NCBI GenBank assembly: GCA_964016885.1
Contig: OZ024743.1
Coordinates: forward strand, 259,222,001-259,286,000
Length of the DNA stretch: 64,000 bases
Reading direction: 5' to 3'
Source: Eledone cirrhosa
Taxonomy: Eukaryota
In this document: positions 1 to 60,041 of the stretch, piece by piece
How the letters are laid out: every line of letters begins with the position of its first letter
Position numbering within the stretch: position 1 is the stretch's first letter
The notes under the pieces: model-generated
What the model was told of the DNA's origin: nothing
Database searches by the model: none
What the model saw: only the letters and a program-made list of their open reading frames with translations
Program-made: the position numbers and the translations under genes

Positions 1-306
1 CCCACTACAACATCATGCTGGTGGGACTCTGTGAGACACGCTAGCAGGTTCCCTTCCGCCAGGTACCCTTCAACCGATCCATTGAAAATTCAGCCCATTG
101 ACACAACCTTCGCTGATCCATCCACCAATGACAACTGTAATTGCCTGCTGCCCCTGTGCCACAACCGTAATCTCTGTATCTCCGACACCTGATTCCTCCA
201 CAAACTAATCCATCACCGGACTTGGTACAGTCCGGACGGGTACACCCAGAAGGTAATCAACCAAATCATCATCTCCCGCCGCTGGAGGTCCTTTGTCACC
301 AACAGA
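1..306 (+). pseudogene. Decayed AP-endonuclease fragment of a LINE (RTE/CR1-like ORF2 N-terminus)
   Basis: Manual translation gives HYNIMLVGLCETR* (3-44) and STNDNCNCLLPLCHNRNLCISDT*FLHKLIHHRTWYSPDGYTQKVINQIIISRRWRSFVTN (121-303). These match the APE motifs L.ETRW and TW.SPDG.T.NQIDHI. Stops and an internal deletion are present. Confidence 0.8.
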
Positions 307-1048: not shown

Positions 1049-2614
1049 ATTTGTAGTGCGTATCTCCTGAAAGGTTTAAACATATCACCCAATCAGAAAT
1101 TAAAATCCATAATTTATTCCTGCTTCACCTAAATGTAAAGTACACCCCTGTTGAAGTATGGAAGTTATAACATTACAAATAATAAAGAATTATCAAAAAT
1201 ACAAAAGAAACAAAAACAAAATACAACAAAAGTCAACCAAATCACACGATGTAAGAATCCCCGAGTAAAAATATCACTGTGGTAAAAAAAAAAAATAATA
1301 ATAAAGAAACGTGTTAACAAAAACCGATTCTCGTTTTGCTAGAAAGGTTAATCTGGTTGTTAATACATGCAATGCCTAGCCAATGTAATATGTACTGATG
1401 TTGTTATTTCCACTAAAAGATTGCCTGTCTTTCTCTTTGGCTGAAGAATATTGCTGGCATTTAAATGGAAGCTGTTTACGTTGAATAAAATACCAAAGAA
1501 AATACCCAGATTGCGATGTAAACAACATTCAAAGCTTTACAACTAGTTAACGTTTGTTTACAACTGTTTTTTATAAAGATCATAACAATGGTGAGATGTT
1601 AAGGTCTATTAAACATACTCTATGGATGATTATATTCCGTCGGAAATAGCATAAACATGTTTCGAATACATTCTAAAAAGAACTAGGATCAGTTTCTAAT
1701 TGAAACTTAAGATATGTTAGATGTAAGTGAAAATAGAGGCATTTATGGAAGCATATACAATATATTTATATATAATAAACATCTATAACTGTGATATGAC
1801 CAATATGTTTCTGTATGATAAACATACACAAGTCTAGCTGTGGATATTTTAATTTGTGATCATGTCGCAACTACTACAATAACAAACCGAGACAGTTGTG
1901 ACATGATCACCGCATAAAATACCCACGGTGAGGCCTATATATGTTTGTTATACATACACATATTGTATATGCTTCTATATACGGCTCTGTTATGAATCTG
2001 TTAGTGTTACTGCTAATTAATACTAGCTCGTCAAGTCTGCATTATATGCAGATAAGCATCCCCTTAAATATACCATTAGCAAAATATATATAAGCTATAT
2101 ATAACATATTTTTAGACAGTACATAGTGTGTATAGGTCATTGAAGATGATTGAAACCCTGAAATACAAATATTTGACGTTTTCATGCGGTGACTGACGTA
2201 GCTGAGACACGACCACAGCCTAAAGCATCTACAGTGAGGTATATGTATATTATTATAATAAACATATTGTATATGATTCCACCTCTATTATGAATCAAGC
2301 TATGTTGCTGTTACTACTAAAAAAGAGAAAATATTTTGCGAAGAATATATTTTAGTCTGTTCACATTATATAAATATATCGCATGAATGATTAAGTGGAA
2401 CGAAACACATTTTAAAGCAAATTAAGATAGATGAAGCTTAAATCTGTTTACATTCACTTGAAAACGGTCAAAGAAGACAGTTGGATTTAACATACCAGAA
2501 GACATTTAACTGATGCTGTATACACACACACACGTATATATATATATATATATATATATATGTAAGTATGTATGTACACGTACATACATATATGTATACA
2601 GACGTACAGTAGCA

Positions 2615-2666
<52 letters not shown>

Positions 2667-2839
2667 CATACACACATGCATACAGGCACACATACATATA
2701 TGCACGCATCAGTTTAGCCGGCGTTTATTATAACGCCGGCCGCTTTGTTCGTTTGTTTGTCAACAAAGCGAACAGCCTGAATTTATGCCATACGGTGTTA
2801 AGGCAACCACGTCACCTTTTTGTTCAACACTGACACAGG

Positions 2840-2884
2840 AACGATGTACTAGTTTCAAGCTTGTTAGCTATCATCAGCACCGTT
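2840..2884 (-). ncRNA. Type I hammerhead ribozyme (array copy 1)
   Basis: Minus strand AACGGTG-CTGATGA-T-AGCT-AACA-AGCT-T-GAAA-CTAG-TA-CATCGTT: 7-bp stem I, intact core, stem II, palindromic minimal stem III (ACUAGU), GUA cleavage triplet. Confidence 0.9.
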
Positions 2885-3118
2885 TACCCATCTGCCAGAT
2901 AGTTGAACGTTCGAAAGTATATACTTTCCTTATGAAAATTAACGGCTGAGCAGCCTAATTTGCATATTGAGTGAGTTAAATCGGTCAGGCATACCGAAAA
3001 CGATAAGTTGAAAAAAATGAAAACGAAATTTCATTTCTCACTCTTAGTATGGCACTTACTTAAATGTAAGTATGTATGTACACGTACATACATATATGTA
3101 TACAGACGTACAGTAGCA

Positions 3119-3164
<46 letters not shown>

Positions 3165-3337
3165 CATACACACATGCATACAGGCACACATACATATATG
3201 CACGCATCAGTTTAGCCGGCGTTTATTATAACGCCGGCCGCTTTGTTCGTTTGTTTGTCAACAAAGCGAACAGCCTGAATTTATGCCATACGGTGTTAAG
3301 GCAACCACGTCACCTTTTTGTTCAACACTGACACAGG

Positions 3338-3382
3338 AACGATGTACTAGTTTCAAGCTTGTTAGCTATCATCAGCACCGTT
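3338..3382 (-). ncRNA. Type I hammerhead ribozyme (array copy 2)
   Basis: Identical to copy 1. Confidence 0.9.
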
Positions 3383-3616
3383 TACCCATCTGCCAGATAG
3401 TTGAACGTTCGAAAGTATATACTTTCCTTATGAAAATTAACGGCTGAGCAGCCTAATTTGCATATTGAGTGAGTTAAATCGGTCAGGCATACCGAAAACG
3501 ATAAGTTGAAAAAAATGAAAACGAAATTTCATTTCTCACTCTTAGTATGGCACTTACTTAAATGTAAGTATGTATGTACACGTACATACATATATGTATA
3601 CAGACGTACAGTAGCA

Positions 3617-3666
<50 letters not shown>

Positions 3667-3839
3667 CATACACACATGCATACAGGCACACATACATATA
3701 TGCACGCATCAGTTTAGCCGGCGTTTATTATAACGCCGGCCGCTTTGTTCGTTTGTTTGTCAACAAAGCGAACAGCCTGAATTTATGCCATACGGTGTTA
3801 AGGCAACCACGTCACCTTTTTGTTCAACACTGACACAGG

Positions 3840-3884
3840 AACGATGTACTAGTTTCAAGCTTGTTAGCTATCATCAGCACCGTT
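3840..3884 (-). ncRNA. Type I hammerhead ribozyme (array copy 3)
   Basis: Identical to copy 1. Confidence 0.9.
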
Positions 3885-4118
3885 TACCCATCTGCCAGAT
3901 AGTTGAACGTTCGAAAGTATATACTTTCCTTATGAAAATTAACGGCTGAGCAGCCTAATTTGCATATTGAGTGAGTTAAATCGGTCAGGCATACCGAAAA
4001 CGATAAGTTGAAAAAAATGAAAACGAAATTTCATTTCTCACTCTTAGTATGGCACTTACTTAAATGTAAGTATGTATGTACACGTACATACATATATGTA
4101 TACAGACGTACAGTAGCA

Positions 4119-4174
<56 letters not shown>

Positions 4175-4347
4175 CATACACACATGCATACAGGCACACA
4201 TACATATATGCACGCATCAGTTTAGCCGGCGTTTATTATAACGCCGGCCGCTTTGTTCGTTTGTTTGTCAACAAAGCGAACAGCCTGAATTTATGCCATA
4301 CGGTGTTAAGGCAACCACGTCACCTTTTTGTTCAACACTGACACAGG

Positions 4348-4392
4348 AACGATGTACTAGTTTCAAGCTTGTTAGCTATCATCAGCACCGTT
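4348..4392 (-). ncRNA. Type I hammerhead ribozyme (array copy 4)
   Basis: Identical to copy 1. Confidence 0.9.
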
Positions 4393-4626
4393 TACCCATC
4401 TGCCAGATAGTTGAACGTTCGAAAGTATATACTTTCCTTATGAAAATTAACGGCTGAGCAGCCTAATTTGCATATTGAGTGAGTTAAATCGGTCAGGCAT
4501 ACCGAAAACGATAAGTTGAAAAAAATGAAAACGAAATTTCATTTCTCACTCTTAGTATGGCACTTACTTAAATGTAAGTATGTATGTACACGTACATACA
4601 TATATGTATACAGACGTACAGTAGCA

Positions 4627-4686
<60 letters not shown>

Positions 4687-4859
4687 CATACACACATGCA
4701 TACAGGCACACATACATATATGCACGCATCAGTTTAGCCGGCGTTTATTATAACGCCGGCCGCTTTGTTCGTTTGTTTGTCAACAAAGCGAACAGCCTGA
4801 ATTTATGCCATACGGTGTTAAGGCAACCACGTCACCTTTTTGTTCAACACTGACACAGG

Positions 4860-4904
4860 AACGATGTACTAGTTTCAAGCTTGTTAGCTATCATCAGCAC
4901 CGTT
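4860..4904 (-). ncRNA. Type I hammerhead ribozyme (array copy 5)
   Basis: Identical to copy 1. Confidence 0.9.
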
Positions 4905-5138
4905 TACCCATCTGCCAGATAGTTGAACGTTCGAAAGTATATACTTTCCTTATGAAAATTAACGGCTGAGCAGCCTAATTTGCATATTGAGTGAGTTAAA
5001 TCGGTCAGGCATACCGAAAACGATAAGTTGAAAAAAATGAAAACGAAATTTCATTTCTCACTCTTAGTATGGCACTTACTTAAATGTAAGTATGTATGTA
5101 CACGTACATACATATATGTATACAGACGTACAGTAGCA

Positions 5139-5186
<48 letters not shown>

Positions 5187-5359
5187 CATACACACATGCA
5201 TACAGGCACACATACATATATGCACGCATCAGTTTAGCCGGCGTTTATTATAACGCCGGCCGCTTTGTTCGTTTGTTTGTCAACAAAGCGAACAGCCTGA
5301 ATTTATGCCATACGGTGTTAAGGCAACCACGTCACCTTTTTGTTCAACACTGACACAGG

Positions 5360-5404
5360 AACGATGTACTAGTTTCAAGCTTGTTAGCTATCATCAGCAC
5401 CGTT
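5360..5404 (-). ncRNA. Type I hammerhead ribozyme (array copy 6)
   Basis: Identical to copy 1. Confidence 0.9.
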
Positions 5405-5638
5405 TACCCATCTGCCAGATAGTTGAACGTTCGAAAGTATATACTTTCCTTATGAAAATTAACGGCTGAGCAGCCTAATTTGCATATTGAGTGAGTTAAA
5501 TCGGTCAGGCATACCGAAAACGATAAGTTGAAAAAAATGAAAACGAAATTTCATTTCTCACTCTTAGTATGGCACTTACTTAAATGTAAGTATGTATGTA
5601 CACGTACATACATATATGTATACAGACGTACAGTAGCA

Positions 5639-5696
<58 letters not shown>

Positions 5697-5869
5697 CATA
5701 CACACATGCATACAGGCACACATACATATATGCACGCATCAGTTTAGCCGGCGTTTATTATAACGCCGGCCGCTTTGTTCGTTTGTTTGTCAACAAAGCG
5801 AACAGCCTGAATTTATGCCATACGGTGTTAAGGCAACCACGTCACCTTTTTGTTCAACACTGACACAGG

Positions 5870-5914
5870 AACGATGTACTAGTTTCAAGCTTGTTAGCTA
5901 TCATCAGCACCGTT
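5870..5914 (-). ncRNA. Type I hammerhead ribozyme (array copy 7)
   Basis: Identical to copy 1. Confidence 0.9.
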
Positions 5915-6148
5915 TACCCATCTGCCAGAAAGTTGAACGTTCGAAAGTATATACTTTCCTTATGAAAATTAACGGCTGAGCAGCCTAATTTGCATATTGA
6001 GTGAGTTAAATCGGTCAGGCATACCGAAAACGATAAGTTGAAAAAAATGAAAACGAAATTTCATTTCTCACTCTTAGTATGGCACTTACTTAAATGTAAG
6101 TATGTATGTACACGTACATACATATATGTATACAGACGTACAGTAGCA

Positions 6149-6202
<54 letters not shown>

Positions 6203-6375
6203 CATACACACATGCATACAGGCACACATACATATATGCACGCATCAGTTTAGCCGGCGTTTATTATAACGCCGGCCGCTTTGTTCGTTTGTTTGTCAAC
6301 AAAGCGAACAGCCTGAATTTATGCCATACGGTGTTAAGGCAACCACGTCACCTTTTTGTTCAACACTGACACAGG

Positions 6376-6420
6376 AACGATGTACTAGTTTCAAGCTTGT
6401 TAGCTATCATCAGCACCGTT
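6376..6420 (-). ncRNA. Type I hammerhead ribozyme (array copy 8)
   Basis: Identical to copy 1. Confidence 0.9.
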
Positions 6421-6654
6421 TACCCATCTGCCAGATAGTTGAACGTTCGAAAGTATATACTTTCCTTATGAAAATTAACGGCTGAGCAGCCTAATTTGCA
6501 TATTGAGTGAGTTAAATCGGTCAGGCATACCGAAAACGATAAGTTGAAAAAAATGAAAACGAAATTTCATTTCTCACTCTTAGTATGGCACTTACTTAAA
6601 TGTAAGTATGTATGTACACGTACATACATATATGTATACAGACGTACAGTAGCA

Positions 6655-6708
<54 letters not shown>

Positions 6709-6872
6709 CATACACACATGCATACAGGCACACATACATATATGCACGCATCATAAATTCAGGCTGTTCGCTTTGTTGACAAACAAACGAACAAAGCGGC
6801 CGGCGTTATAATAAACGCCGGCTAAACTGATGCGTGCATATATGTATGTGTGCCTGTATGCATGTGTGTATG

Positions 6873-6928
<56 letters not shown>

Positions 6929-7081
6929 TGCTACTGTACGTCTGTATACATATATGTATGTACGTGTACATACATACTTACATTTAAGTAAGTGCCATAC
7001 TAAGAGTGAGAAATGAAATTTCGTTTTCATTTTTTTCAACTTATCGTTTTCGGTATGCCTGACCGATTTAACTCACTCAAT

Positions 7082-7129
7082 ATGCAAATTAGGCTGCTCA
7101 GCCGTTAATTTTCATAAGGAAAGTATATA
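7082..7129 (+). promoter_or_regulatory. Candidate octamer + TATA module upstream of the hammerhead (present in every complete array unit)
   Basis: ATGCAAAT at 7082-7089 and TATATA at 7124-7129. The same order and 42-44 nt spacing occur in two other hammerhead families (9658/9701 on +; 59335/59291 on -). Confidence 0.5.
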
Positions 7130-7162
7130 CTTTCGAACGTTCAACTATCTGGCAGATGGGTA

Positions 7163-7207
7163 AACGGTGCTGATGATAGCTAACAAGCTTGAAACTAGTA
7201 CATCGTT
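7163..7207 (+). ncRNA. Type I hammerhead ribozyme (array copy 9)
   Basis: aacggtg ctgatga t agct aaca agct t gaaa ctag ta catcgtt on the plus strand, predicted cleavage between 7200 and 7201. Confidence 0.9.
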
Positions 7208-7380
7208 CCTGTGTCAGTGTTGAACAAAAAGGTGACGTGGTTGCCTTAACACCGTATGGCATAAATTCAGGCTGTTCGCTTTGTTGACAAACAAACGAAC
7301 AAAGCGGCCGGCGTTATAATAAACGCCGGCTAAACTGATGCGTGCATATATGTATGTGTGCCTGTATGCATGTGTGTATG

Positions 7381-7436
<56 letters not shown>

Positions 7437-7670
7437 TGCTACTGTACGTCTGTATACATATATGTATGTACGTGTACATACATACTTACATTTAAGTAAG
7501 TGCCATACTAAGAGTGAGAAATGAAATTTCGTTTTCATTTTTTTCAACTTATCGTTTTCGGTATGCCTGACCGATTTAACTCACTCAATATGCAAATTAG
7601 GCTGCTCAGCCGTTAATTTTCATAAGGAAAGTATATACTTTCGAACGTTCAACTATCTGGCAGATGGGTA

Positions 7671-7715
7671 AACGGTGCTGATGATAGCTAACAAGCTTGA
7701 AACTAGTACATCGTT
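7671..7715 (+). ncRNA. Type I hammerhead ribozyme (array copy 10)
   Basis: Identical to copy 9. Confidence 0.9.
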
Positions 7716-7888
7716 CCTGTGTCAGTGTTGAACAAAAAGGTGACGTGGTTGCCTTAACACCGTATGGCATAAATTCAGGCTGTTCGCTTTGTTGACAAAC
7801 AAACGAACAAAGCGGCCGGCGTTATAATAAACGCCGGCTAAACTGATGCGTGCATATATGTATGTGTGCCTGTATGCATGTGTGTATG

Positions 7889-7948
<60 letters not shown>

Positions 7949-8182
7949 TGCTACTGTACGTCTGTATACATATATGTATGTACGTGTACATACATACTTA
8001 CATTTAAGTAAGTGCCATACTAAGAGTGAGAAATGAAATTTCGTTTTCATTTTTTTCAACTTATCGTTTTCGGTATGCCTGACCGATTTAACTCACTCAA
8101 TATGCAAATTAGGCTGCTCAGCCGTTAATTTTCATAAGGAAAGTATATACTTTCGAACGTTCAACTATCTGGCAGATGGGTA

Positions 8183-8227
8183 AACGGTGCTGATGATAGC
8201 TAACAAGCTTGAAACTAGTACATCGTT
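8183..8227 (+). ncRNA. Type I hammerhead ribozyme (array copy 11)
   Basis: Identical to copy 9. Confidence 0.9.
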
Positions 8228-8400
8228 CCTGTGTCAGTGTTGAACAAAAAGGTGACGTGGTTGCCTTAACACCGTATGGCATAAATTCAGGCTGTTCGCT
8301 TTGTTGACAAACAAACGAACAAAGCGGCCGGCGTTATAATAAACGCCGGCTAAACTGATGCGTGCATATATGTATGTGTGCCTGTATGCATGTGTGTATG

Positions 8401-8454
<54 letters not shown>

Positions 8455-8565
8455 TGCTACTGTACGTCTGTATACATATATGTATGTACGTGTACATACA
8501 TACTTACATTTAAGTAAGTGCCATACTAAGAGTGAGAAATGAAATTTCGTTTTCATTTTTTTCAA

Positions 8566-8618
<53 letters not shown>

Positions 8619-9149: not shown

Positions 9150-9195
<46 letters not shown>

Positions 9196-9298
9196 AATAT
9201 TTCGTATCTCCAAAGAAATACGGTTTTAGGAAGCCGTAGCTATGCAAACACCGGGGGGCTAATGCTCTCTGGTGATGTCCAGCAGAAGCAAGGGGACA

Positions 9299-9342
9299 AC
9301 CGTCTATGCATTTCAGGTTTAACTGGCCATCGTCAGGACGGT
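9299..9342 (-). ncRNA. Type I hammerhead ribozyme
   Basis: ACCGTC-CTGACGA-TGG-CCAGTTAAA-CCT-GAAA-TGCA-TA-GACGGT: perfect 6-bp stem I, palindromic stem III AUGCAU, weak stem II. Confidence 0.75.
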
Positions 9343-9750
9343 CCCTCCCACCGCTTGCGACTGCTGGACTAGAATACAGGCGAGAATATATAGTTTTCTC
9401 GTCTGTGTAAATGAGGTGATTAATCTCATTTGCATATTAAGCTGCATAAGTTGGTTCAACTTATAATAAAAAAGAAATAGGATTTTGCTTCAAGCATATC
9501 TTTATACAATTTGTATAAATATTTCGTATCTCCAAATAAATACGATTTTAGGAAGCCGTAGCTATGCAAACACCGGGGGCTAACGGCCTCAAGCTATGCT
9601 TGAAGCGAAATCCTATTTCTTTTTTATTATAAGTTCAGCCAAGTTATGCAGCTTAATATGCAAATGAGATTAATCACCTCATTTACACAGACGAGAAAAC
9701 TATATATTCTCACCTGTCTTCTCGTCCAGCAGTCGCAAGCGGTGGGAGGG

Positions 9751-9794
9751 ACCATCCTGACGATGGCCAGTTAAACCTGAAATGCATAGACGGT
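9751..9794 (+). ncRNA. Type I hammerhead ribozyme
   Basis: Inverted partner of 9299-9342 with one stem I mismatch. Confidence 0.7.
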
Positions 9795-10038
9795 CATCCT
9801 CCTTGCTTCTGCTGGACATCACCAGAGGGCGTTAGCCCCCCGGTGTTTGCATAGCTACGGCTCCCTAAATCGGTATTTCTTTGGAGATACGAAATATTTA
9901 TACAAATTGTATAAATCTATGCTTGAAGCGAAATCCTATTTCTTATATATATATATATTTATATAATATAAATATACGCCCACAAAGACACCAAATATAT
10001 TTATGTCAGTGTGTATATATAGATACCCCCCCCCCCCC

Positions 10039-10555: not shown

Positions 10556-10606
10556 AGATTCTACAGGACTAGAACTGTTTCATTATTTAGAAATCATCAG
10601 GAATCT
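10556..10606 (-). ncRNA. Type I hammerhead ribozyme in a Penelope-LTR-like fragment (10470-10606)
   Basis: AGATTC-CTGATGA-TTT-CTAAAT-AAT-GAAA-CAG-TTCTAGTC-CTG-TA-GAATCT: perfect stem I, 4-bp stem III, GUA. The downstream tail runs into (TA)n at 10449-10469. Confidence 0.75.
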
Positions 10607-16918: not shown

Positions 16919-17205
16919 TTTCTTTATTGGCCACAAGCGCTGACATCAAGAAAAACATTACAGACGGCACAGGACGGTACGATGTGGGTTTTGTGCGTGT
17001 AAATATTTTTATTATTTATATAAGAAAAGAAAAAAGGACATGAAACATATATATATATAAATAATAAAATGAAAATTGAAACAATGAAAAATTCCCCAAT
17101 AGGGGGAAACCTCCGAGGGTTACTCGTGGCGAAAACCACACAAAAGGCCACGGCAACCCTGACTACCAGGGCAAGCGCCCTCTCTCAAATTTTCCATCTC
17201 TCAAA

Positions 17206-20200
17206 CTACAGACGTATATTCAGAGTGGTCCCGTTCACTCGGACCATTCTCGCTACATTCACCCACCTTTCAACAAACTTGCTAGAAAGCAGCACTTGCC
17301 TCTCCACCCTGATTTTCCTCTTCAAGGGAAACTTGAAAAAGTTAATTAGGGATTCGCTGAAGAGGAAAGTGTTTGTCTTTAACCCTTTTAACCTTGTCCA
17401 CCACACAATCTCTTTCGCCATGGCCACCAGGCAGATGAAAACCGCCTGCCCTTCCTCCTCGAAGGAAGACGGCGAGACCATCTGCACAATGGACTCAGTC
17501 GACAACCGGATCAGTCCCACACGTGACAGCAACTGTTCGACATAGCTCCACAAGTCAGTAATGCTCGGGCACTGAACGAGTGCGTGCACAACGGTTTCGT
17601 CGCTATGCGCGCATCTCGGACAGGCTCGGCTGACGGCACTTCCGTGCAAGTAGAGCTTATCTCGAACCGGAAGCGCTCCCCGGTAGCACTGCCAGGCCAG
17701 GGATTTTTGGAAGTTATCCATAGGCCCCGAGCTGAAAGTTCTCCGGAAGACAGCAAACAGCTGATCTTCTTCGACGCCCAGGATCTCTCCGAGAATGTCG
17801 CCGCTCTTCCCCTCCACCATTCCTCTATAGAACGCCGAGGTGGATGTTCCACCGATACTGGTGCCCAACTGGGAGAGGGCAGTGAGTGCCTGGAGACATT
17901 CCAGTTTCCAAGCGCTATCCCTCGGTCTTTTTCTGACCCAGGACTGGAGCTCCGTCAAGGAGACGAGCTGTGGGAAAACGTGCCTGGCGAACGGCGACCA
18001 CACCCGTTCACCATCAAGGAAGCACCAGAGATGTCGCAGCCTCAGCGCATGTTTGCGCATCATCAGCCATGGTATGCCCGGTCCTCCACGCAACGGGTGT
18101 TGACAGCAGATGGATCGTCTGACCATGGGAGCGCGTCCCTTCCACAAAAAGCGGAAGAGGAGGCGCTCCATTTTGGTGAGAGTTGGGCTGGAGCAAGGAA
18201 AGACGGTGAGGCGGTAGCAGATGACGGATGCGATGTACGCATTCGCCACTTCCGCCCGGCCTTTCAGGAACAGCTTCCTCTCGGCCCATTTCTGGGTGCG
18301 GGAGGCCACCTTCCTCGTCACCTCGTTCCAGTTTTTCTCCATCTGGAGGTCCGGTCCAAACCAGAGCCCGAGCAATTTAACCGGTCCGTCCGTCCAACGC
18401 CCCACTACGCTGTCGGACGGCATGAACTTTCCTCTCCAGGTGCCTAGCTGCAAGCTCACCGACTTTTCCTGGTTTATCTTTGCTGCTGTCAATGCTTCGT
18501 ATTCCTTGAGAGCGGTGCCGAGCATCTGGACGTGTCAGGTGCTCGACACCACCACGGTGACGTCGTCGGCATAAGCCGATTCGGATTTCCCGCATCCTAG
18601 TTCGCGTGAGACGCCCCTCATCGCCTCCAGTTTGTGCATAACGGCTCGAGAGCCAATACGTACAAAAGGGACGAGAGGGGACAACCCTAGCGGACTGAGT
18701 GCATGATGCTAAACGGCTGCGACAGGTGACCGTTCACCCTCACAACTGAGCAGATGTCGCTGTACATCGCAGCAATCCAACCCCTGAAAACGGGCCCGAA
18801 ACCGTCTGCCTCGAGGACCGCCGCCAGGTACCGATGGTCGACCCTATCGAATGCTTTGGATTGATCCAAGTTGATCAGGGCCCCACCTGTGCCAGGTTCC
18901 TTATCCACCATCTCTATGATGTACCGCATGAGGTGGAGGTTGGCGTGTATGGATCTGTCCGGAATGGCGCTTGTCTGCGCCTCTCCCCCAGGCCCTTGAC
19001 GACAAGCGCCAACCTCGTTCCTAACACCTTGGCCAAAATCTTGAACTCTGCGTTTAACAGGGTTATAGGCCTCAAATTGTCGATAAGATCCCCCTTGTTC
19101 GGGTCTTTTCTCAGCAGCGCCATCGCTCCCCGGCTCACAAAACTGGGAATGCTCCTATTCAGCTGCCAGTTGCAGTAGAAGTCTGCCAAGAGGTCACCGA
19201 ACAAGTCTGGCATAAATGCATAAAGCTCGTAGGGCAGACAATCCAAACCTGGCGATTTACCCCTCGTGCAGTTAGCCATCACTTCCCGTATTTCATCGGC
19301 TGTTATTGGCTTTTCGCAACACTGTGCTGCGGTTGTCGAGAGCCGAGGCAGTCCGTCGAGGTATGCACTGAAGTCCATGCCCCGATCCGGACCGCCGCCG
19401 CTCCCGAACAGTTCAGCAAAGTGTTGCTGAAATGCTTAACACATCTGCTCGGGTTCGAGCAACACGCACCCGTTTTGGTCAGACAAAGACTGAATTGTGG
19501 CTTTGTTTACACGTCGCGCCTCTGCCACCCGGGCCCATTGGACGGCTTTTGTCCCCTCGTGTTTCAGAGCACGCGCTCTAGCTCTGACAACACAGCATTC
19601 GTGTTTTGCGTTGAAGAATTGGTCGAGTGCCAATCTCGCCGCAAACACATCGGTTGCGAAGCCTGTCCTAAACGCCTCTTCTAGCTTTCTGACTAGCTCT
19701 CCCTCTACTCTATTTTCCTCTATCACTAGTCCTTTGCTAAACCTAATCGGCTCTACTTTAATTGCCCTTTTCAGGGCGAACCACCACCTGTTGTTGACGA
19801 TCGCTCCCGTCAACCCCCGCTTAACTAATACACTAATCAGGTCTCTGTAGGCTTTGCGCGCCGGGAAAGACGCGTTGAGCTTCCAGTAACCGGGCCCTTG
19901 TCTATGAAGTCTGTCTATGTCGATCTCACAGATCACAAATTTGTGGTCTGTGTAGTCGACTATTTTAAATTGTGGACAACTTATACTAGCCTTATCTAGT
20001 TCTCTGCAGAATACCCTATCGAGATACGATCTGGATGACCCGATGCGGTTTGTCCATGTCCACATTGGCACATTCGGGTGATCCAGTCGATACCTGTCAG
20101 ACAGTTCAAAACGTCTGAGCAGGTTGGTGAGGCTCTTCACCCTCCTCTCCTATCCACTAGCCCCACACAATCCCAGCGTGCATCCAAGATACCGTTCCAG

Positions 20201-20622
20201 TCGCCCACTAACACTAAAGAGCGGGACGTTCCAAGAAAGGTCTCTAGACGCCTGAAGAAATCTGGCCGTCCTGCCTCTGTTGGGGCGTAGACGGCTACTA
20301 TTCTGTAAGCATTGCCTTCGCTGCCGGTCACGTCCAGCACCACCGACTTACCTTCTGGGTCTAGGAAGATGGCCCGTATGGCGAGATCCAAGCCTCTCCG
20401 AAAAAGGACGGCAACCCCTCCCCTCGATCCTAGACGGCTGGGAGATGCGTATACATCGTAGCCGCCGAAGATCGGTGCGAAGGCTTGTGCTTCGGAGATT
20501 CTGGTCTCACTGATGGCCACCACATCTATGTTTAGTGACCTGAGGTCGTTGAGCAGGTGACCCTGCTTCCAAGATGACCCCAGGCCACGTGCATTTATAC
20601 TGCCTTTTCTGAGTACGGCCAT
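17206..20622 (-). pseudogene. LINE ORF2 (AP endonuclease + reverse transcriptase + C-terminal zinc finger), frameshifted
   Basis: SINARGL, ISET, VYAP, GDWN, SYLDR, TDH, PGYWKLN, KSPGLD, RPITLLN, LDQSKAFDRV, AYADD (~18575) and CPRC..DETVVHALVQC, split over at least 5 ORF pieces. Confidence 0.93.
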
Positions 20623-20654
20623 GTTGGATGAGAAATGGGGCAAGTGAGAAAGGG

Positions 20655-22700
20655 TCACTTACCTTGATCGTGTGGTGAAGGGACAGTAGAACCGTCCCTT
20701 TGGCTGGTCATGGGTGTTTCCAAGAGGATGTCAGTGTATATCCTCTTGGTAACTGACCCTCTGAAATCTCCAACTGTGTTGGGGAATTTTTGTTTTAAAG
20801 GTTTGTACTGTTCTATTGAGATTTCAATGATGCTTATGTTTGTCGGGAGAATTCTTGGTGTTGGTGGGGTGTAGTAGTTTTTTTCTGTGATGACTGTGTG
20901 CTGCTTTATGTGTTGTATGAGTTCTTTTTTTGCCATGTTTATGGCTGTGTACTTTTTTGGGGGAGGGCTGATTTTATTGCTGTTTTCTTCTTGTTGTTGT
21001 TTTCTTCTTGTTGTTGTTTTCTTCTTGTTGCTGTTTGGTGTGTGTGTTTTCTTTTGTTTGCGTTGTTTGTGTTTTTGGTGGTGCTGCTGGTGGTATGGTT
21101 GTTGTTGGCGGTGGTGCTTGTGGTGGTGATGGTGATGGTAGTGGTTTTGCTGCAAATTTCCTTGCTGCCTTTACCCCTCTTTGTGTGCCTTCGCTTTTGG
21201 AGGGTGAATCTAAGGGTTTTTTTCTTTTTTCTTTTTGTGGCAGACCATTTGCCACTTCACTCCCGCCTCAAACTCCATTTCGGATTCCGTGGTCTGGGAG
21301 GGGTTTGTGCTCTACGGCTGTTGGTGGTTGTAGAGGAGCCCTCTTCGGCAATTTTGTTGCTGGTGTAGCTACTTCAAATGTAGCTATTGGTGTTGCCGCC
21401 ACTGATGATGCTGCTTTAGTTGTCCGTGGCCTTGGTACGGGTGCCACGGACGTTGCCCTCCTACTCACCGTAGAAGGGGCTTCTGCGTTTGTTGCCTGCT
21501 CTGCTCTGGGTAGCAGCGGACCAGGTATTGGAAGGAGAGGGGCCTTCTTCTTCGCTGTCTTCTGCGGACAAAAGGCCCTGAGGTGACCCTTCGACCCACA
21601 GAGATAACATTTTGGCCGTTTTCCTTTTACGCTTATAGGGAGCTGGAGTCCTTCCTCGATGTCTATGATATCGGGGATAGCGTCGATACATTCCTGGTCA
21701 GTTTGTATAAGCATTTGCATGCCTATACCTGACCAGTTATCTCTCCCTATTTTCTATACTTGCAGCATGGTCGTCCTGTCCTCGATTCCAGCAAGGACAG
21801 ACGCTGCCAGCCAAGGTATGGGCACGTCGGGTGGGACCTGGGTCACTTTGACCCTCACAATTTTCTGCCCGCAGTAGGAGGGCACCAAGACTATCTCCTC
21901 ACTCTTTAGGGTTTCCAAAGAGTGAAACTTCGCTTCCTGGGGGGTGGCGAAAAGTACGTCTACTGTGGCGTACTTTCTGCCTCGGGTGAAGTGGGTTTTG
22001 CGTGCCTTTTGGATATGAGCCTCCGTGGCTCTCTCCACCCGATGTGAGATTTTGCTTACGGTGCGGTAAGTCACCGTCCGTAGCTGCTGGTCCTTGAAAA
22101 AATCGGGTGGAGGTTTCAGGGAGACTCTATTGGCACTTCTTGTCACCATGGCCCTTGCGACTGCCATCTCCTCCTCTGTGACTAACACTGTCACGATATT
22201 TCGGGCGACACCTGCAAAAGAAGTGGTCCCTTTTTCAGCAGCACCACTATTGCTGCCGCTACTGGTCTTACTGGTGGTGCTGAGATCGCTATTACAGGTA
22301 TCGATGTCATTGTTGTTGTTTTCGTTGGTACAGTTGTTGGTGTTGTTGTTGTTGTTTTCGTTGATACTGTTGCTGTTGTTACTGTTATTGTGGCTGTTGT
22401 TCTTATTGTTGTTTTTGTTGATACTGTTACTACTATTATTGTTGTTGTGGCTGTTGTTATTGTTATTGTTATTGTCTTTCTTGACCTTAGTGCTGTTATT
22501 TTTGTTATTGTCGTTCTCGACTTTACCGTTGTTATTTTTGTTGTTGCTGTTGTTATTGATGGTGTTGTTGTTGGTGTTATTGTAGGTGTTGTTTGTGTTA
22601 GAAATATTTGGTAATTTTAAATCTGTAACAATCTTGTTTTCCTTTGTAATATTTTCGTTTATATTTACCTCCGCTGGAACGCTGTCTTGTTGACATGCTG
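20655..22700 (-). pseudogene. LINE ORF1 (gag-like, CCHC knuckle, N/T-rich and Q/H/K-rich low-complexity segments), frameshifted
   Basis: CYLCGSKGHLRAFC in 21268-21720 and an RRM-like VRVKVTQVPPDVP segment. The start position is approximate. Confidence 0.8.
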
Positions 22701-22984
22701 ATAAAGTCTCCTTCTCTCTGTGTTGTCTGACAGCGCTCTCTCTGTTTCTTGTGTTATCGATGTTGAAATTTTTTCAAAAAAATATTTTTACACAAATACG
22801 AATACGACACCCCGTAAAGGGGAGCCGTATATTTACGAGTAAGCCCCTGTATTAGGAGGGTCACTTCTTCTAAACTTTTATCAAATTTAAAACTTGAATA
22901 AAAGGTTTAGAATGGTTGAAAACGAGGTAAAACGTTGAAAAAAATTGGAGGCGATAAGAAGCGAGGCTTCACCAACAATAATAA

Positions 22985-29547: not shown

Positions 29548-29861
29548 ATTACCAATAAAGGACTTTAACATCTGAAACTACTTCGCATTTTCTCATTCTA
29601 AATATACTCCATTTTTCCTATGTGGAGTGATTGATTTGAAGTGCATCAATGTTTACTGTAATATATATATATATACATACTTACATTTATATATATATAT
29701 ATATATGGAGGAAGTTATAGTTCACTTGAAGCATTGTGTAATGAGGTATAAACGTTTGTAGTTGTAAGGCCAAAACAATGCAGGTATGGATATAGAATAT
29801 AAATGCAAATGCAAAAGATATTGTTGACAATTAGTCTTTTACCTTAAATTTATTTAAATAT

Positions 29862-29896
29862 CCTTAATTTTCGAGATAATATCTCTTCTTCGGAGG
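29862..29896 (-). ncRNA. Minimal hammerhead-like motif in the inverted pLTR (U4C variant)
   Basis: CCT-CCGAAGA-A-GAGAT-ATT-ATCTC-GAAAATTA-AGG. Confidence 0.55.
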
Positions 29897-30005
29897 GAAG
29901 TAAAGTGGTTAATCCAGCGTTCTAAATAGCTTGTCAAGTCATGCTGCCAGGAAATGATATAGAGATTCCATTCTATCTCTAATGTCAAAGAGTGAAGGTT
30001 AAAAC

Positions 30006-32415
30006 TTGCACCTACCAACATGCTTCAAATCACCAGGCCTCAAACGATCACTTAGCTACATACAACAATTCTGCTTAAGAAAACTCATACAACACCTACA
30101 CCGCACGCTACAACAACACATACGGACTATTTCGAGCCTTGTTCCACAACTCGCTGTAACCCCAGAACCTCTGCCCAGAATTATCTCCGCCGCTACAGAC
30201 AGGTCATACCACCATCGCCGAGACTACGAGAAAATACGCATAATGCAAACATTTCTCAAACTCAGCGCGGCTAACCGTCTTAACAACAACCCAACTCTAA
30301 GCACCAACAGAGGCGAACAAGACGGTACCAACACCGAACCTAGCGGCGCCCCGACCAACAACACACCTGACGCAAAACACCTCGTCACAGACTTGACAGG
30401 ATCCCTCTCCTGAGAGGAATTAGACCTCCTCAGCCTGGATCCCAAGTTCATATTGAAACAGAGACTGGACGACAAATTATGGCTCGACATAGAAACGAAT
30501 TTCTGTCGGGCCGCCTACCAACTAAAATGGATATCGACTTTCGGCAACACCACGGAATCTAACAAACTCAGATTCCCGATATACCAACTGGATCGCCCAC
30601 TCTGTACACCGCCTGCCAACCGCGAGCTTGAAGAAAAACTCTCGAGGCTAAAAAATTCCGTATTTAACATCTTACGGAAACAGAAGAAAATAGCCCCAAA
30701 CCTCTCCAGTACACAACAACTCGCCCTGAAGAACCTGCGGAATAGGGAACTTATATACTTACCATGCGACAAAGGTAAAGAGTTTTGTGTCATCTCTCAA
30801 GCCACATACAACAACCTAGCCTTTAACACCTAAGCGACAACGAACTATATACAGAGATTCCGGATATGACTGCAGCCCTGATCGAAAAACAGGCCAACTC
30901 TATCTGGTTCGACATCTGTAGGAGAAGACAACTCCCAAATAAAGTTAAACTCAACTACACCACTAGAAATAGCAGACTGCCCACTTTCTATCACCTCATC
31001 AAGACCCACAAGAATAATACTATGACACAAATAAGACCCATCGTCTCTAGCATAGAAGGACCCCTATACAAAATCTCCTGGCTCCTCTCCCAGGTCCTCA
31101 AACCTCTACTCTCCACCTTTCCCGGGCATGTCAGTAGCTCCGATGAAGTCATACGTAGACTACACCAACTCCTGCCAGAACAACTTAAACTAAATAGATA
31201 CGCCTTTGGCCTCGACGTTGTCTCCCTCTACACTACAGTCTCCGCTCATCCAGCTGTCCATTTATTGACGGACTGCGTCGTCGCAGAGGACATCTACTGC
31301 TACGGTCTCCGTATGACGGACATACACCAGTTTTTGTCCTTCACAGCGGACAACACGTACTTCACCTTCCACCACCACCACACATACAGACAGACAACAG
31401 GATTACCCATGGGATCCAGCCTATCGTGCCTGCTGGCCATCACCCATATGAACCAGCTAGAATGCCGAGCCCTCAAAACCTGCCATTCCCATACCTTCTT
31501 CACCCGATATGTAGATGATATACTCATCCTTACATCATCCTGTGAGGAGGCGGATAAAATATACACGACATTTTCCTGCATGGACGCCAGTATAAAGTTC
31601 AGCATGGAACACCCCGATGACCGTGGATCCCTATCCCTACTGGACTTCCAACTCAGGGTAACAGAGGAAGGCAACATCCACACCTGCTTATATAAAAAAG
31701 CCGCCAGCAGGGACCTGTTCGTACATTTCAGACCGGCCCTCCCAGCCGGCGCTAAGTTCGGATACATAAGGAACGAACTACACGTATCCGGAACAAATGC
31801 ACTGACGCAAGAGACAGAGACACACACACCACACGTTTCCTGGAAGTACTCAAACTGAACGGATACCCAACGTCCACCACGAACCGTGCCAGAAAGAACA
31901 GAGGACACCACGCCCGAGGCACTAACACCTGCTTCCTGAAGCTCCCACACTTCAGTGACGAAATAACAACAGCTATCCGCAGAGCTATCAGACGAGAGGG
32001 ACTAGATATCCAACTAGCCCACTCAGGACTTTCTCTACGGGGACAGCTAACCAAAAGACACTCCACCAGACATGACAGCCGCTGCAGGCAAGCCAACTGC
32101 CCCATCAACGACACAGACCTATGCCACCAGGCTTACGTCGTATACAGATTAGAGTGCGACAAATGCAGCAACTTCTACGTAGGTAGCACCACCAGACCAC
32201 TTCACATAAGAATAAAAGAACACCTCAATACTAACGCTTCCTCATTTAAGAAACACCTAGTGAAATGCAAAAACACCGACAAAAATATAACAGTTAGGAT
32301 AGAAAGTAAGGAAAGAAACCTCGGCAATCTTAGAATTAAGGAAGCACTGATTATAGACAAAACACAACCACCAATCAATAATAGACTGGAACTCAACACC
32401 CAATTTATAACTTGA
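30006..32415 (+). pseudogene. Penelope-type reverse transcriptase + GIY-YIG endonuclease, disrupted
   Basis: PCDKG, FYHLIKTHK, IRPIVS, LDVVSLYT, GLPMGSSLS, RYVDD, LDF. Cys-rich linker CRQANCPINDTDLC, then VVYRLECDKCSNFYVGSTTRPLHIRIKEH..KEALII..PPIN. A stop at 30411 and frameshifts are present. Confidence 0.92.
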
Positions 32416-32820
32416 TAGAGCACCTAGCCCCACACACTTTCACCCCCTCTCATACACACGCACACGCACACACACACGCACACACACCCATACACACACA
32501 CGCACGCTTACACCTCCACTTATTCTCTCTCATACACACATACCCACACAAATACCTGATAGAGCATCTAGCCCCCACATTTACGTATAGGAATATCTTC
32601 TCACACTCACACACACACACACACACACAGATACTTACGCCTTCACGTATTCTCCCACACACTTAAGGATACATGTACAAAACCCCTTTTAAAGGGAGAC
32701 TACTCTTTATCCACCTAACCTTCACCTTTTGACATTAGAGATAGAATGGAATCTCTATACCATTTCCTGTCAGCATAACCTGGCAAGCTATTTAGAACGC
32801 TGGATTAACCACTTTACTTC

Positions 32821-32855
32821 CCTCCGAAGAAGAGATATTATCTCGAAAATTAAGG
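32821..32855 (+). ncRNA. Minimal hammerhead-like motif in the 3' pLTR (U4C variant)
   Basis: cct ccgaaga a gagat att atctc gaaaatta agg. PLE pLTRs are known to carry minimal hammerheads. Confidence 0.55.
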
Positions 32856-32963
32856 ATATTTAAATAAATTTAAGGTAAAAGACTAATTGTCAACAATATA
32901 TTTTGCATTTCCATTTATATTCTATATCCATACCTGCATTGTTTTGGCCTTACAACTACAAGC

Positions 32964-32997
<34 letters not shown>

Positions 32998-54791: not shown

Positions 54792-55376
54792 GTATTAAAT
54801 ATAATTGTTTCTACTTTAGGCACAAGGCCAGCAATTACCCAGTGCATTACTGGTACTTTATTTTATCGACCCGGTAAGGATGAAAAGCAAAGTTAACCTT
54901 GGCGGAATTTGAACTCAGACCGTCAAGGGACATAACTATGCTAGAAAGCATGGCGTCCAACCCTCTACAGATACTGCCAATTCACCGTATTAAATATAAT
55001 TGTTTCTACTTTAGGCACAAGGCCAGCAATTACCCAGTGCATTACTGGTACTTTATTTTATCGACCCGGTAAGGATGAAAAGCAAAGTTAACCTTGGCGG
55101 AATTTGAACTCAGACCGTCAAGGGACATAACTATGCTAGAAAGCATGGCGTCCAACCCTCTACAGATACTGCCAATTCACCGTATTAAATATAATTGTTT
55201 CTACTTTAGGCACAAGGCCAGCAATTACCCAGTGCATTACTGGTACTTTATTTTATCGACTCCGTAAGAATGAAAGGCAAAGTCAACCTCGGCGGGATTT
55301 GAACTCAGATCGTAAAGAGACGTAACTATGCTGGAAAGCATGGCGTCCGACCCTCTACCGATACTGCCAATCCACC
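54792..55376 (-). mobile_element. Three tandem family A SINEs, 195-bp period
   Basis: Units start at 54792, 54987 and 55182. The first two look identical and the third diverges after ~55260. Confidence 0.92.
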
Positions 55377-59049: not shown

Positions 59050-59052
<3 letters not shown>

Positions 59053-59367
59053 AATTTAGATTCGGCATAGCTGGATATATACAAATATGTGAATTTCATA
59101 CGGTTTGTGTAATAAATACACATTTTGAAAGCCCAACTATGAATATTGAAAGGCTGACGGCCAGCACCGTCAGTAGATTCCAGCAGAAACAGCAAGGTAT
59201 AACTGTCTACTTGCATTTCGAGCTTCTGACCCTCATTAAGACAGCGCTGCCCCTGCCTTCTGCTGGACCTTGAAACAGGCGAAAATATATAGTTATTTTA
59301 GCCTGTGTGGGTGTGCTGTTTAGCCTCATTTGCATTTGAAACTGTATAAATTGGCTCACAGCACGCA

Positions 59368-59370
<3 letters not shown>
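59050..59370 (-). mobile_element. ~320-bp element related to the 9.2-kb family, between (TA)n tracts, with decayed hammerhead (59203-59244)
   Basis: Shares ccagcagaa..gcaagg, caggcga.aatatatagtt and ctcatttgcat with 9279-9435. Minus strand CTGTC-TTAATGA-GGGT-CAGAA-GCTC-GAAA-TGCAAG-TA-GACAG. Confidence 0.7.
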
Positions 59371-59404
<34 letters not shown>

Positions 59405-59565
59405 CGGCGATGAATTAGTTTTGCGAGGTTTTTTATATGAAATCGTGTGTCGAAACAGATATTGTTATATTTGGGGAGGGTCATATTTGCGTAATATTGC
59501 CAGAATTAATAACAGAACACACTCACTGTTTGGTTGGTTTTCGCTTCTCGCGATATATATATATA

Positions 59566-60041
59566 AAAAATTAGAATTGGACCTCTGAAATAGCAATATA
59601 TATATGGATGTATATATAATGTATTTTGCAATACACTTTATGCTTAATTAAAAGCATTTTGAAGACCGTAAGATATTGTTTTTTAGAGTAGTGACAAATT
59701 CACTTACTTTGATCTCAGCAAACAGAGGAGATAAGCCGACAAGGCCTTGTTTCGCTTTTGTTGAAGCTTATCAAGGCTAACTACTCCCACCTGTCTACCG
59801 AGATCACTGATGTTATATTCTTATAGAATTCTAGTAAATAATCAGGAGCTGATTATACAGAGCTGTTGTTGGTCAAGCAGAAATTAAAAATTAGAACTGG
59901 AGCTCTGAAATAGCAATATATATATGGATGTATATATAATGTATTTTGGAATACACTTTATGCTTAATTAAAAGCATTTTGAAGACCGTAAGCTATTGTT
60001 TACGGTCTTCAAAATGCTTTTAATTAAGCATAAAGTGTATT
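59566..60041 (-). mobile_element. Hammerhead element, ~320-bp unit x1.4 plus a 41-bp inverted arm
   Basis: 59566-59680 recurs at 59886-60000, and 60001-60041 is an inverted copy of part of it. The left end joins (TA)n. Confidence 0.8.
59734..59778 (-). ncRNA. Type I hammerhead, U3-A8 core variant
   Basis: AGCC-TTGATAA-GCTT-CAACAA-AAGC-GAAA-CAAGGCCTTG-TC-GGCT: all three stems pair, palindromic stem III, GUC triplet. Confidence 0.75.

Follow-up and report, generated by a model that had tools for sequence, protein, structure and literature searches.

A promoter-like module resembling host snRNA promoters precedes the hammerhead ribozyme in several Penelope-type retrozyme families of the octopod Eledone cirrhosa

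In the 64,000-nt stretch of the Eledone cirrhosa genome analysed here, referred to throughout as the window, short repeat units of two families (A and B) and a single B-related element near 59 kb carry an octamer (ATGCAAAT) and a TATA box ahead of a hammerhead core. Their features, together with those of an octamer-less relative used as an internal contrast, are the following (a caret marks the transcription start).

2557..6753, minus strand: left arm of a family A retrozyme, eight tandem units of 498-512 bp, each with the module and a hammerhead
Unit position +412, minus strand: outer end of the family A left arm, in (TA)n
6752..8570, plus strand: right arm of the family A retrozyme, head-to-head with the left, with a 5'-truncated start at +178 and three modules
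Unit position +470, plus strand: outer end of the family A right arm, in (TA)n, 58 nt past the end of the other arm, a Penelope-type tail
7024..7036, plus strand: T4-CA-T7 run that could act as a Pol III terminator, lying 46-58 nt ahead of the octamer; copies run through it
7080..7093, plus strand: extended octamer ATATGCAAATTAGG, with motif and orientation as in the host U6, U6atac and MRP promoters
7098..7101, plus strand: TCAG, 26 nt ahead of TATA, positioned as the conserved TCAG of host U1/U2/U4/U5 promoters; putative PSE-like core
7124..7131, plus strand: TATA box TATATACT, from the window scan
7154, plus strand: transcription start as predicted from the layout of host snRNA genes (TATA+30, C^AG)
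7164..7206, plus strand: minimal type I hammerhead, with helix I at 7164-7169/7201-7206, core CTGATGA at 7170-7176, GAAA at 7191-7194, palindrome ACTAGT at 7194-7199 and a predicted cut after 7200
9192..9590, minus strand: family B left arm (unit of about 323 bp), with its octamer at 9435-9428 and its core at 9336; it terminates in (TA)n at the first of the two fixed ends
9591..9945, plus strand: family B right arm; the octamer (9658-9665) is followed by TCAC (9674-9677), TATA (9701-9708), a predicted start at 9731, the core CTGACGA (9757-9763) and a predicted cut after 9788, and the arm terminates in (TA)n at the second of the fixed ends, some 45 nt beyond the first
59050..59370, minus strand: single B-related element flanked by (TA)n tracts, with its octamer at 59335-59328, TATA at 59291-59284 and the degenerate core TTAATGA at 59239-59233; it has no TCAG
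59560..60040, minus strand: relative of the octamer-less family F, without octamer, with ATCAGC 28 nt ahead of TATAAG (59825) and a variant core CTTGATAA near 59775

The window scan places TATA at +42 and the core CTGATGA at +88 from the plus-strand octamer at 7082, TATA at +43 and the core at +99 from the octamer at 9658, and TATA at +44 and the core at +96 from the minus-strand octamer at 59335. An earlier note on this DNA had given octamer-TATA distances of 42, 43 and 44 nt at these sites, with the octamer 88-99 nt ahead of the core and all three modules on the ribozyme-sense strand, and the scan returned exactly these values and orientations. The pattern octamer-N25-45-TATATA has 14 matches in the window vs 0.16 in shuffled sequences, namely 11 copies of family A, two of family B and the one 59-kb element; since these are copies of A, plus B and its relative, they represent only two independent units. 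Outside the motifs, the 59-kb element shows kinship with B in 4/4 segments (z 3.4-6.1), whereas the window A unit does not align with B (z <=1.7), just as the note had judged the 500-bp unit to be unalignable to the other two and those two to be mutually related.

Ribozymes were called from the core motif, GAAA, a palindromic helix III and helix I pairing. A type I hammerhead is present in all 11 full A units of the window, and the helix I pairs differ from family to family. The note had placed hammerheads in three families, which holds for the A and B cores but not for the 59-kb element: its core TTAATGA departs from CTGATGA at two positions, its helix III is enlarged, it does not qualify as a type I hammerhead and its ribozyme is probably inactive. 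Compared with shuffled sequences, folding gave z values of -0.97 for family A, -3.0 for family B and -2.7 for the 59-kb element, the family A hammerhead having a U-U at the base of helix II and folding no better than its shuffles. Among the 150 of 194 matches listed in an Rfam scan of the window there was no hammerhead, only microsatellite-driven miRNA matches. Helix III is a 6-nt palindrome (ACTAGT, ATGCAT), and hammerheads with such short palindromic helices are reported to cut as dimers (PMC4209133). By analogy, the ribozymes described here probably cut only as dimers. Because helix III is of this dimer-cutting kind, the trimming of the 5' end proposed in the note would probably need a second hammerhead, and trimming by a lone ribozyme is doubtful.

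Family A is a short, non-coding tandem unit dispersed in many arrays, as retrozymes are: units measure 498-512 bp, no ORF of 150 aa occurs at 2.5-10 kb of the window, and the body has 32,427 matches genome-wide. Both window insertions (A and B) are head-to-head with their outer ends in (TA)n, an arrangement found at many loci, and an inverted 5'-truncated copy at the 5' end is found in both families. One hundred A copies were picked by a body word; 33 continue into the next unit, and the remaining 67 comprise 17 that end at +412, 19 that end at +470 in (TA)n and 31 unclassed (positions counted from the octamer of the family A unit). In family B the two ends lie about 45 nt apart. Because of their head-to-head arms, two fixed 3' ends and (TA)n targets, we classify the units, from their sequence organisation, as non-autonomous Penelope-like retrozymes, an identity that the note had missed. 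Penelope-like elements are recognised by an inverted 5'-truncated copy, by a tail that results from two starts of reverse transcription and by (TA)n targets, and EN+ Penelope-like elements with their non-autonomous forms share all three (PMC8557442; PMC11167929); the octopod units differ from the latter in having no ORF and a tail of 45-58 nt vs 30-40. The Penelope and Chlamys elements have an internal promoter overlapping an intron, unlike the octopod units. TATATA was considered as a priming site and rejected, the fixed ends mapping elsewhere (+412/+470).

In a small sample with short flanks, an autonomous element carrying the module was found neither at 30 GIY-YIG loci plus 20 longer stretches nor at 30 loci of an abundant (TA)n-ending family; copies of family A or E near candidate autonomous loci look like separate insertions. 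Several Penelope-like elements were observed alongside. The window itself contains a broken one at 29700-32970 (RVT_1 plus a C-terminal GIY-YIG), whose inverted 5' copy measures 255 nt and whose tail is about 45 nt long; its ends lie in (TA)n, and neither hammerhead nor module was seen in it. An autonomous family (L199, L203, L204, L207, L215) has a CTGAAGA-core hammerhead downstream of its ORF and a TATA at -84/-75, without octamer. A further, very abundant family with a divergent GIY-YIG (L343, L386-L415; 53,706 candidates, of which 150 were scored) has several fixed end points in (TA)n, and its outermost tail, judged by eye, also seems to follow family A copies in L379 and L017. This last family is a candidate mobiliser.

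At L105:1200-1700, a family E retrozyme arm in inverted orientation is joined head-to-head to a U6atac retrocopy that terminates in (CA)n/(TA)n, as though a single insertion of Penelope type had drawn on two RNAs, one from a retrozyme and one an snRNA; further U6/U6atac retrocopies are likewise embedded in (TA)n (L085, L086, L102, L103). The window also holds a broken LINE with a zinc-knuckle ORF1, AP endonuclease and RT frames (17200-22800, minus strand), and an XRN2 coding sequence without introns for at least 749 codons was met elsewhere (L384:6255-8501). In keeping with an octopod genome, an XRN2 frame shows 93% identity to Octopus sinensis and 92% to Argonauta.

Genome-wide (3.0 Gb), the arrangement octamer-TATA-hammerhead core has 21,257 matches vs 10 for the reversed pattern. 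With the octamer alone turned round there are 78, many of which, by eye, are inversion junctions of the same elements. The positional enrichment of octamer and TATA on which the note had staked its reading is thus real but limited to a subset of hammerhead families. The spacing, described in the note as fixed, is 42-44 in about 95% of the matches, but other values are enriched too: 36-41 (785 matches, control 8) and 45-49 (307 matches, control 7), both counted with a search pattern slightly unlike the main one. Together the spacings form two groups, at about 40-44 and at 46-48. Most module matches belong to families A and B, the others to C, D, E, G and several rare families. Groups A, B with the 59-kb element, C, D, E and G keep the motifs; most pairs of their spacers are unalignable, and downstream of the ribozyme A2 weakly resembles E and B (z 3-4).

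A hammerhead search blind to the octamer yielded 18,216 matches (control 82), mostly of family F, which has 13,399 copies, a TATA 50 nt ahead of the core, ACCAGT 28 nt ahead of the TATA and no octamer at the module position. Nor was an octamer found at that position in families H, I, J and others near Penelope ORFs; one H-like copy does have it. A module common to all hammerhead elements, as the note implied, is contradicted by these families. Another hammerhead family, with a longer helix III (window 10560-10600, minus strand, and L202, L205, L209, L216), has CCAAT and TATAAATA just 34-36 nt ahead of the core and no octamer. Contigs from four sequencing runs of unrecorded kind contained known subfamily variants, none of them in the octamer, TCAG or TATA, and the same comparison with runs from other organisms gave only 0-2 contigs.

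The host's own snRNA genes served as the standard of comparison. Promoters were picked by inspection from the U6 loci (12 + 14), of which we used the three distinct ones with an intact gene 5' end and upstream DNA; those left out are tandem duplicates, have a repeat inserted between promoter and gene, or are 5'-damaged copies, and one of six U6atac loci was used for the same reasons. The five Pol III genes (three U6, U6atac, MRP) all have an octamer within one mismatch at -76..-78, exact in three, in the context ATG(C/G)(A/T)AAT(T/G)AG, and a TATA at -30. Among 15 distinct Pol II promoters of U1/U2/U4/U5, none has the octamer, 13 have TCAG at -55..-58, and an AATTAA-like element at -88..-91 and a TATA-like box near -30 complete the layout. 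TCAG at -56 is absent from all five Pol III genes, and none of the 20 host snRNA genes examined combines octamer and TCAG. In insect snRNA promoters the polymerase is set by short lineage-specific motifs and their spacing (PMC1761439).

Over the snRNA loci as a whole (L041-L043, L053-L055, L067-L074, L101, L107, L150-L161), the Pol III layout is octamer at -77 and TATA at -30, the Pol II layout is AATTAA at -89, ATCAGT at -57 and a TATA-like box at -30, and in Pol II genes a AAAATCAGACT-like 3' box that resembles the upstream ATCAGT element follows 10-22 nt after the gene. In a tandem U6 array (L047, L052; G000:C19), a repeat of about 190 bp separates the octamer region from the gene in some units and duplicates the flank of the TATA; tandem copies of a comparable unit, 195 bp long, occur at window 54792-55376.

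Measured against these genes, the sequence upstream of the ribozyme very probably constitutes a conserved promoter-like module, and the note's idea of an snRNA-like element just 5' of the ribozyme is borne out, as regards a promoter-like module, by the host comparison. The other parallel that the note had drawn, with H2B promoters, fails: of 27 histone promoters with a TATA none has the octamer at the module place and none has TCAG, and an H2B-type octamer promoter was rejected. The flank 3' of the octamer is N-A-G in 7/7 element representatives and 5/5 Pol III genes vs 8/33 other octamers, and the octamer with its (T/G)AG flank stands upstream of TATA in the same orientation, as in type 3 Pol III promoters. 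The Pol III spacing of 46-48 is found only in family D and several rare families, whereas A, B and the 59-kb element have 42-44.

The note had recognised octamer and TATA but missed a third element, TCAG about 26 nt ahead of TATA, which is held more rigidly than the octamer. When 112 distinct module copies were clustered at 78%, 29 clusters resulted, or 28 after a microsatellite-rich chance hit (L037) was dropped. Exact TCAG lies 24-27 nt ahead of TATA in 14 of these 28 clusters vs 0.67 expected, the clusters not being independent (about ten are D and about five A); a relaxed motif, set after looking, is found in 22 of 28 vs 3.6 expected. In the main cluster of family A, 34 of 38 copies have exact TCAG, while family B has TCAC, with one mismatch, and the 59-kb element neither form. 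TCAG stands at 26 nt in A, D, L331 and L343 despite octamer spacings of 42, 47, 48 and 47. Because this distance is constant while the octamer spacing varies, TCAG-TATA is the rigid part, at the distance of host Pol II snRNA genes, along which the octamer slides. The position TATA+30 reads C^AG in A1, A2, B, the 59-kb element and E (cf. C^AG in host U4 and C^A in U1) and T^GT in family D, like host U6. A one-mismatch AATTAA at -89 occurs in 5/28 clusters, and in 4/12 short-spaced clusters, there only in A and the 59-kb element. With a 12-nt matrix built from the host Pol II promoters no element family reached significance (best p 0.07; family E was mis-anchored), and the host 3'-box pattern, which fits just 7/13 host genes, matched none of eight element stretches.

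Since the octamer marks host Pol III and not Pol II snRNA genes, the assignment of a polymerase rests on TCAG and on evidence for read-through, which comes from the copies themselves. Among 100 A copies picked without regard to the promoter, 73 span the octamer (60 exactly) and 53 run past -90; the module does travel inside the copied unit, as the note had supposed of its promoter. Their 5' ends are scattered (five in 61..85, five in 111..130) and do not cluster where start and cut are predicted, and one of the fixed ends (+470) sits 8 nt beyond the T7 run. With a fixed end beyond the run, copies spanning the octamer and no pile-up of 5' ends, the copied RNA must have passed the T-run; this makes a read-through or circular RNA the template and favours Pol II. 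A T-run joined to the cut site was found at most twice vs 32,427 body matches. Circles from T-run-terminated RNA were rejected, since in one of the two matches a copy is 5'-truncated at the cut site and adjoins unrelated DNA, and the other match is ambiguous. The module is thus probably driven by Pol II/SNAPc, and the simplest account is that Pol II starts from a core of snRNA type, helped by a POU site, and reads through.

Alternatively, though we consider it unlikely, the module may be a U6-type Pol III promoter, with most of its transcripts ending at the T6-T7 run just ahead of the next promoter and only the few that read through acting as templates. The host genes marked by octamer plus TATA are those of Pol III (5/5 vs 0/15), the first long T-run in A and B (T6-T7) comes right before the next promoter with no T4 in the body, and D, L331, L341, L343 and L347 keep the host spacing of 47-48, D also starting at T^GT like U6; yet A, B and the 59-kb element are spaced 42-44, TCAG at -56 is missing from every host Pol III gene, T4 depletion is not significant in any of nine bodies (P 0.09-0.88), the +470 end lies beyond the T7 run, and 5' ends do not accumulate at start or cut site. 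A leaky-terminating Pol III, or both polymerases, may be at work, most of all in the 47-spaced families. Family D (L319-L348) is old and dispersed, with one copy per locus, the exact U6 spacing (47), CCATTTCAG, a T^GT start and a T5 run 50-100 nt past the start in the three copies inspected; it is the best candidate for short Pol III hammerhead RNAs.

A less probable alternative is that the pseudo-LTR of a Penelope-like ancestor supplied a standard Pol II TATA promoter and, with it, a POU activator site; the likeness of this promoter to snRNA promoters would be incidental, and it would work without SNAPc. Penelope-like elements are thought to be transcribed from the pLTR (PMC11167929; PMC8557442), another hammerhead family of this genome has CCAAT and TATA, and TCAG is a motif of four letters only. 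Against it stand the fixed TCAG-TATA distance, kept across unalignable groups at the value of host snRNA genes, the octamer position and flanks, which are those of U6/MRP, and the 27 histone promoters, none of which shows either mark. Least probable of all, in our judgement, is that the motifs are not a promoter but descend from a common ancestor and were retained for their role in the RNA, where TATATA would pair with the (TA)n target and pyrimidines plus CAG would form a 3' splice site, with RNA supplied by host read-through: in Drosophila virilis a Penelope intron terminates at helix I, on its 5' side (PMC4209133), B and E have a pyrimidine run ahead of CAG, a 2020 review assumes host read-through (PMC7761336) and the weak A2-E and A2-B likeness suggests remote common ancestry, but insertions end at +412/+470 and not at TATATA, and the three-part match to host snRNA promoter geometry goes unexplained at the RNA level.

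On balance we favour, with fair but not high confidence, the reading that octamer, TATA and often TCAG, at host snRNA distances, make up an snRNA-type promoter, probably for Pol II, that starts about 16-26 nt before the ribozyme core and is copied along with the unit. The octamer would be bound by a POU factor and the TCAG-TATA core by SNAPc/TBP, and transcription, meeting no 3' box, would run into the next unit. Two hammerheads in one transcript could then pair via the palindromic helix III and cut. The cut-to-cut monomer would carry on its 3' side the promoter sequence belonging to the following unit and may form a circle, as has been shown for other animal retrozymes (PMC7229834). A Penelope-like RT-endonuclease would nick (TA)n and prime at two fixed sites, 96 and 38 nt ahead of the octamer, and every head-to-head tandem array laid down in this way would retain a promoter. 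The tandem structure would in this way solve the usual loss of the upstream promoter in retrotransposition. Against this reading stands family F, which spreads well (13,399 copies) and has no octamer.

Animal snRNA promoters combine a PSE or PSEA with a PSEB or TATA, or are of type 3 as in U6 and MRP, and the octopod module has the same motifs and distances as the U1/U2/U4/U5 (TCAG, TATA) and U6/U6atac/MRP (octamer, TATA) genes of its own genome. The retrozymes differ from these genes in that both marks are combined, the 3' box is lacking and the module lies inside a mobile tandem unit. The precedent is found in newts, whose satellite 2 promoter reportedly contains an octamer. An snRNA-type promoter for Pol II is ascribed to satellite 2 (PMC2220036, citing Coats 1994; PMC2114352). 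Like the octopod units, the Notophthalmus/Triturus repeat is tandem, measures a few hundred bp and contains a hammerhead, and its snRNA-type promoter lies within the unit. Unlike it, the octopod units belong to a mollusc, have the octamer just 40-48 nt ahead of TATA, mix host Pol III and Pol II marks, and form many families with Penelope-type ends. The metazoan non-LTR retrozymes (Cervera and de la Pena 2020, PMC7229834; bioRxiv 10.64898/2026.07.22.740005) share the tandem non-coding type I hammerhead, the short palindromic helix III and the link to Penelope-like elements; a conserved promoter-like module sets the octopod units apart. A 2020 review states that retrozymes seem to be without promoters and assumes host read-through (PMC7761336), and the word 'promoter' is not used in the available text of the 2026 preprint linking animal retrozymes to Penelope-like elements (bioRxiv 10.64898/2026.07.22.740005). 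The plant LTR retrozyme NbRZ1 does have a promoter upstream of its hammerhead, for which Pol II was inferred and whose start could be mapped only after the ribozyme had been killed (PMC12029980); it is an LTR element with a type III hammerhead and a promoter that is not snRNA-type. In the full-text literature, outside subscription papers and the supplement of PMC7229834, whose mussel sequences may bear on generality, we found no paper on cephalopod retrozyme or snRNA promoters.

With respect to the source of animal retrozyme transcription, the octopod genome offers a precise, mutable three-motif prediction with start sites, and its natural spacing variants (42 vs 47), together with an octamer-less family as control, make the question directly testable. 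The finding links the isolated result on newt satellite 2 to Penelope-type elements in a mollusc, and the octopod snRNA promoter layout is useful for guide-RNA expression in cephalopods. We tentatively suggest, as a wider and less secure reading, that octopod Penelope-type retrozymes may repeatedly have built or kept a hybrid SNAPc promoter, a Pol III octamer on a Pol II TCAG-TATA core, that no host gene has, carried along by tandem read-through and dimeric hammerheads; the more than 20,000 modules might then act as dispersed POU/SNAPc docking sites, and snRNA-type promoters may drive animal retrozymes generally. Since more than 20,000 copies share with the host snRNA genes these signals and their distances, each unit likely switches on its own transcription, contrary to the view of animal retrozymes as promoter-less.
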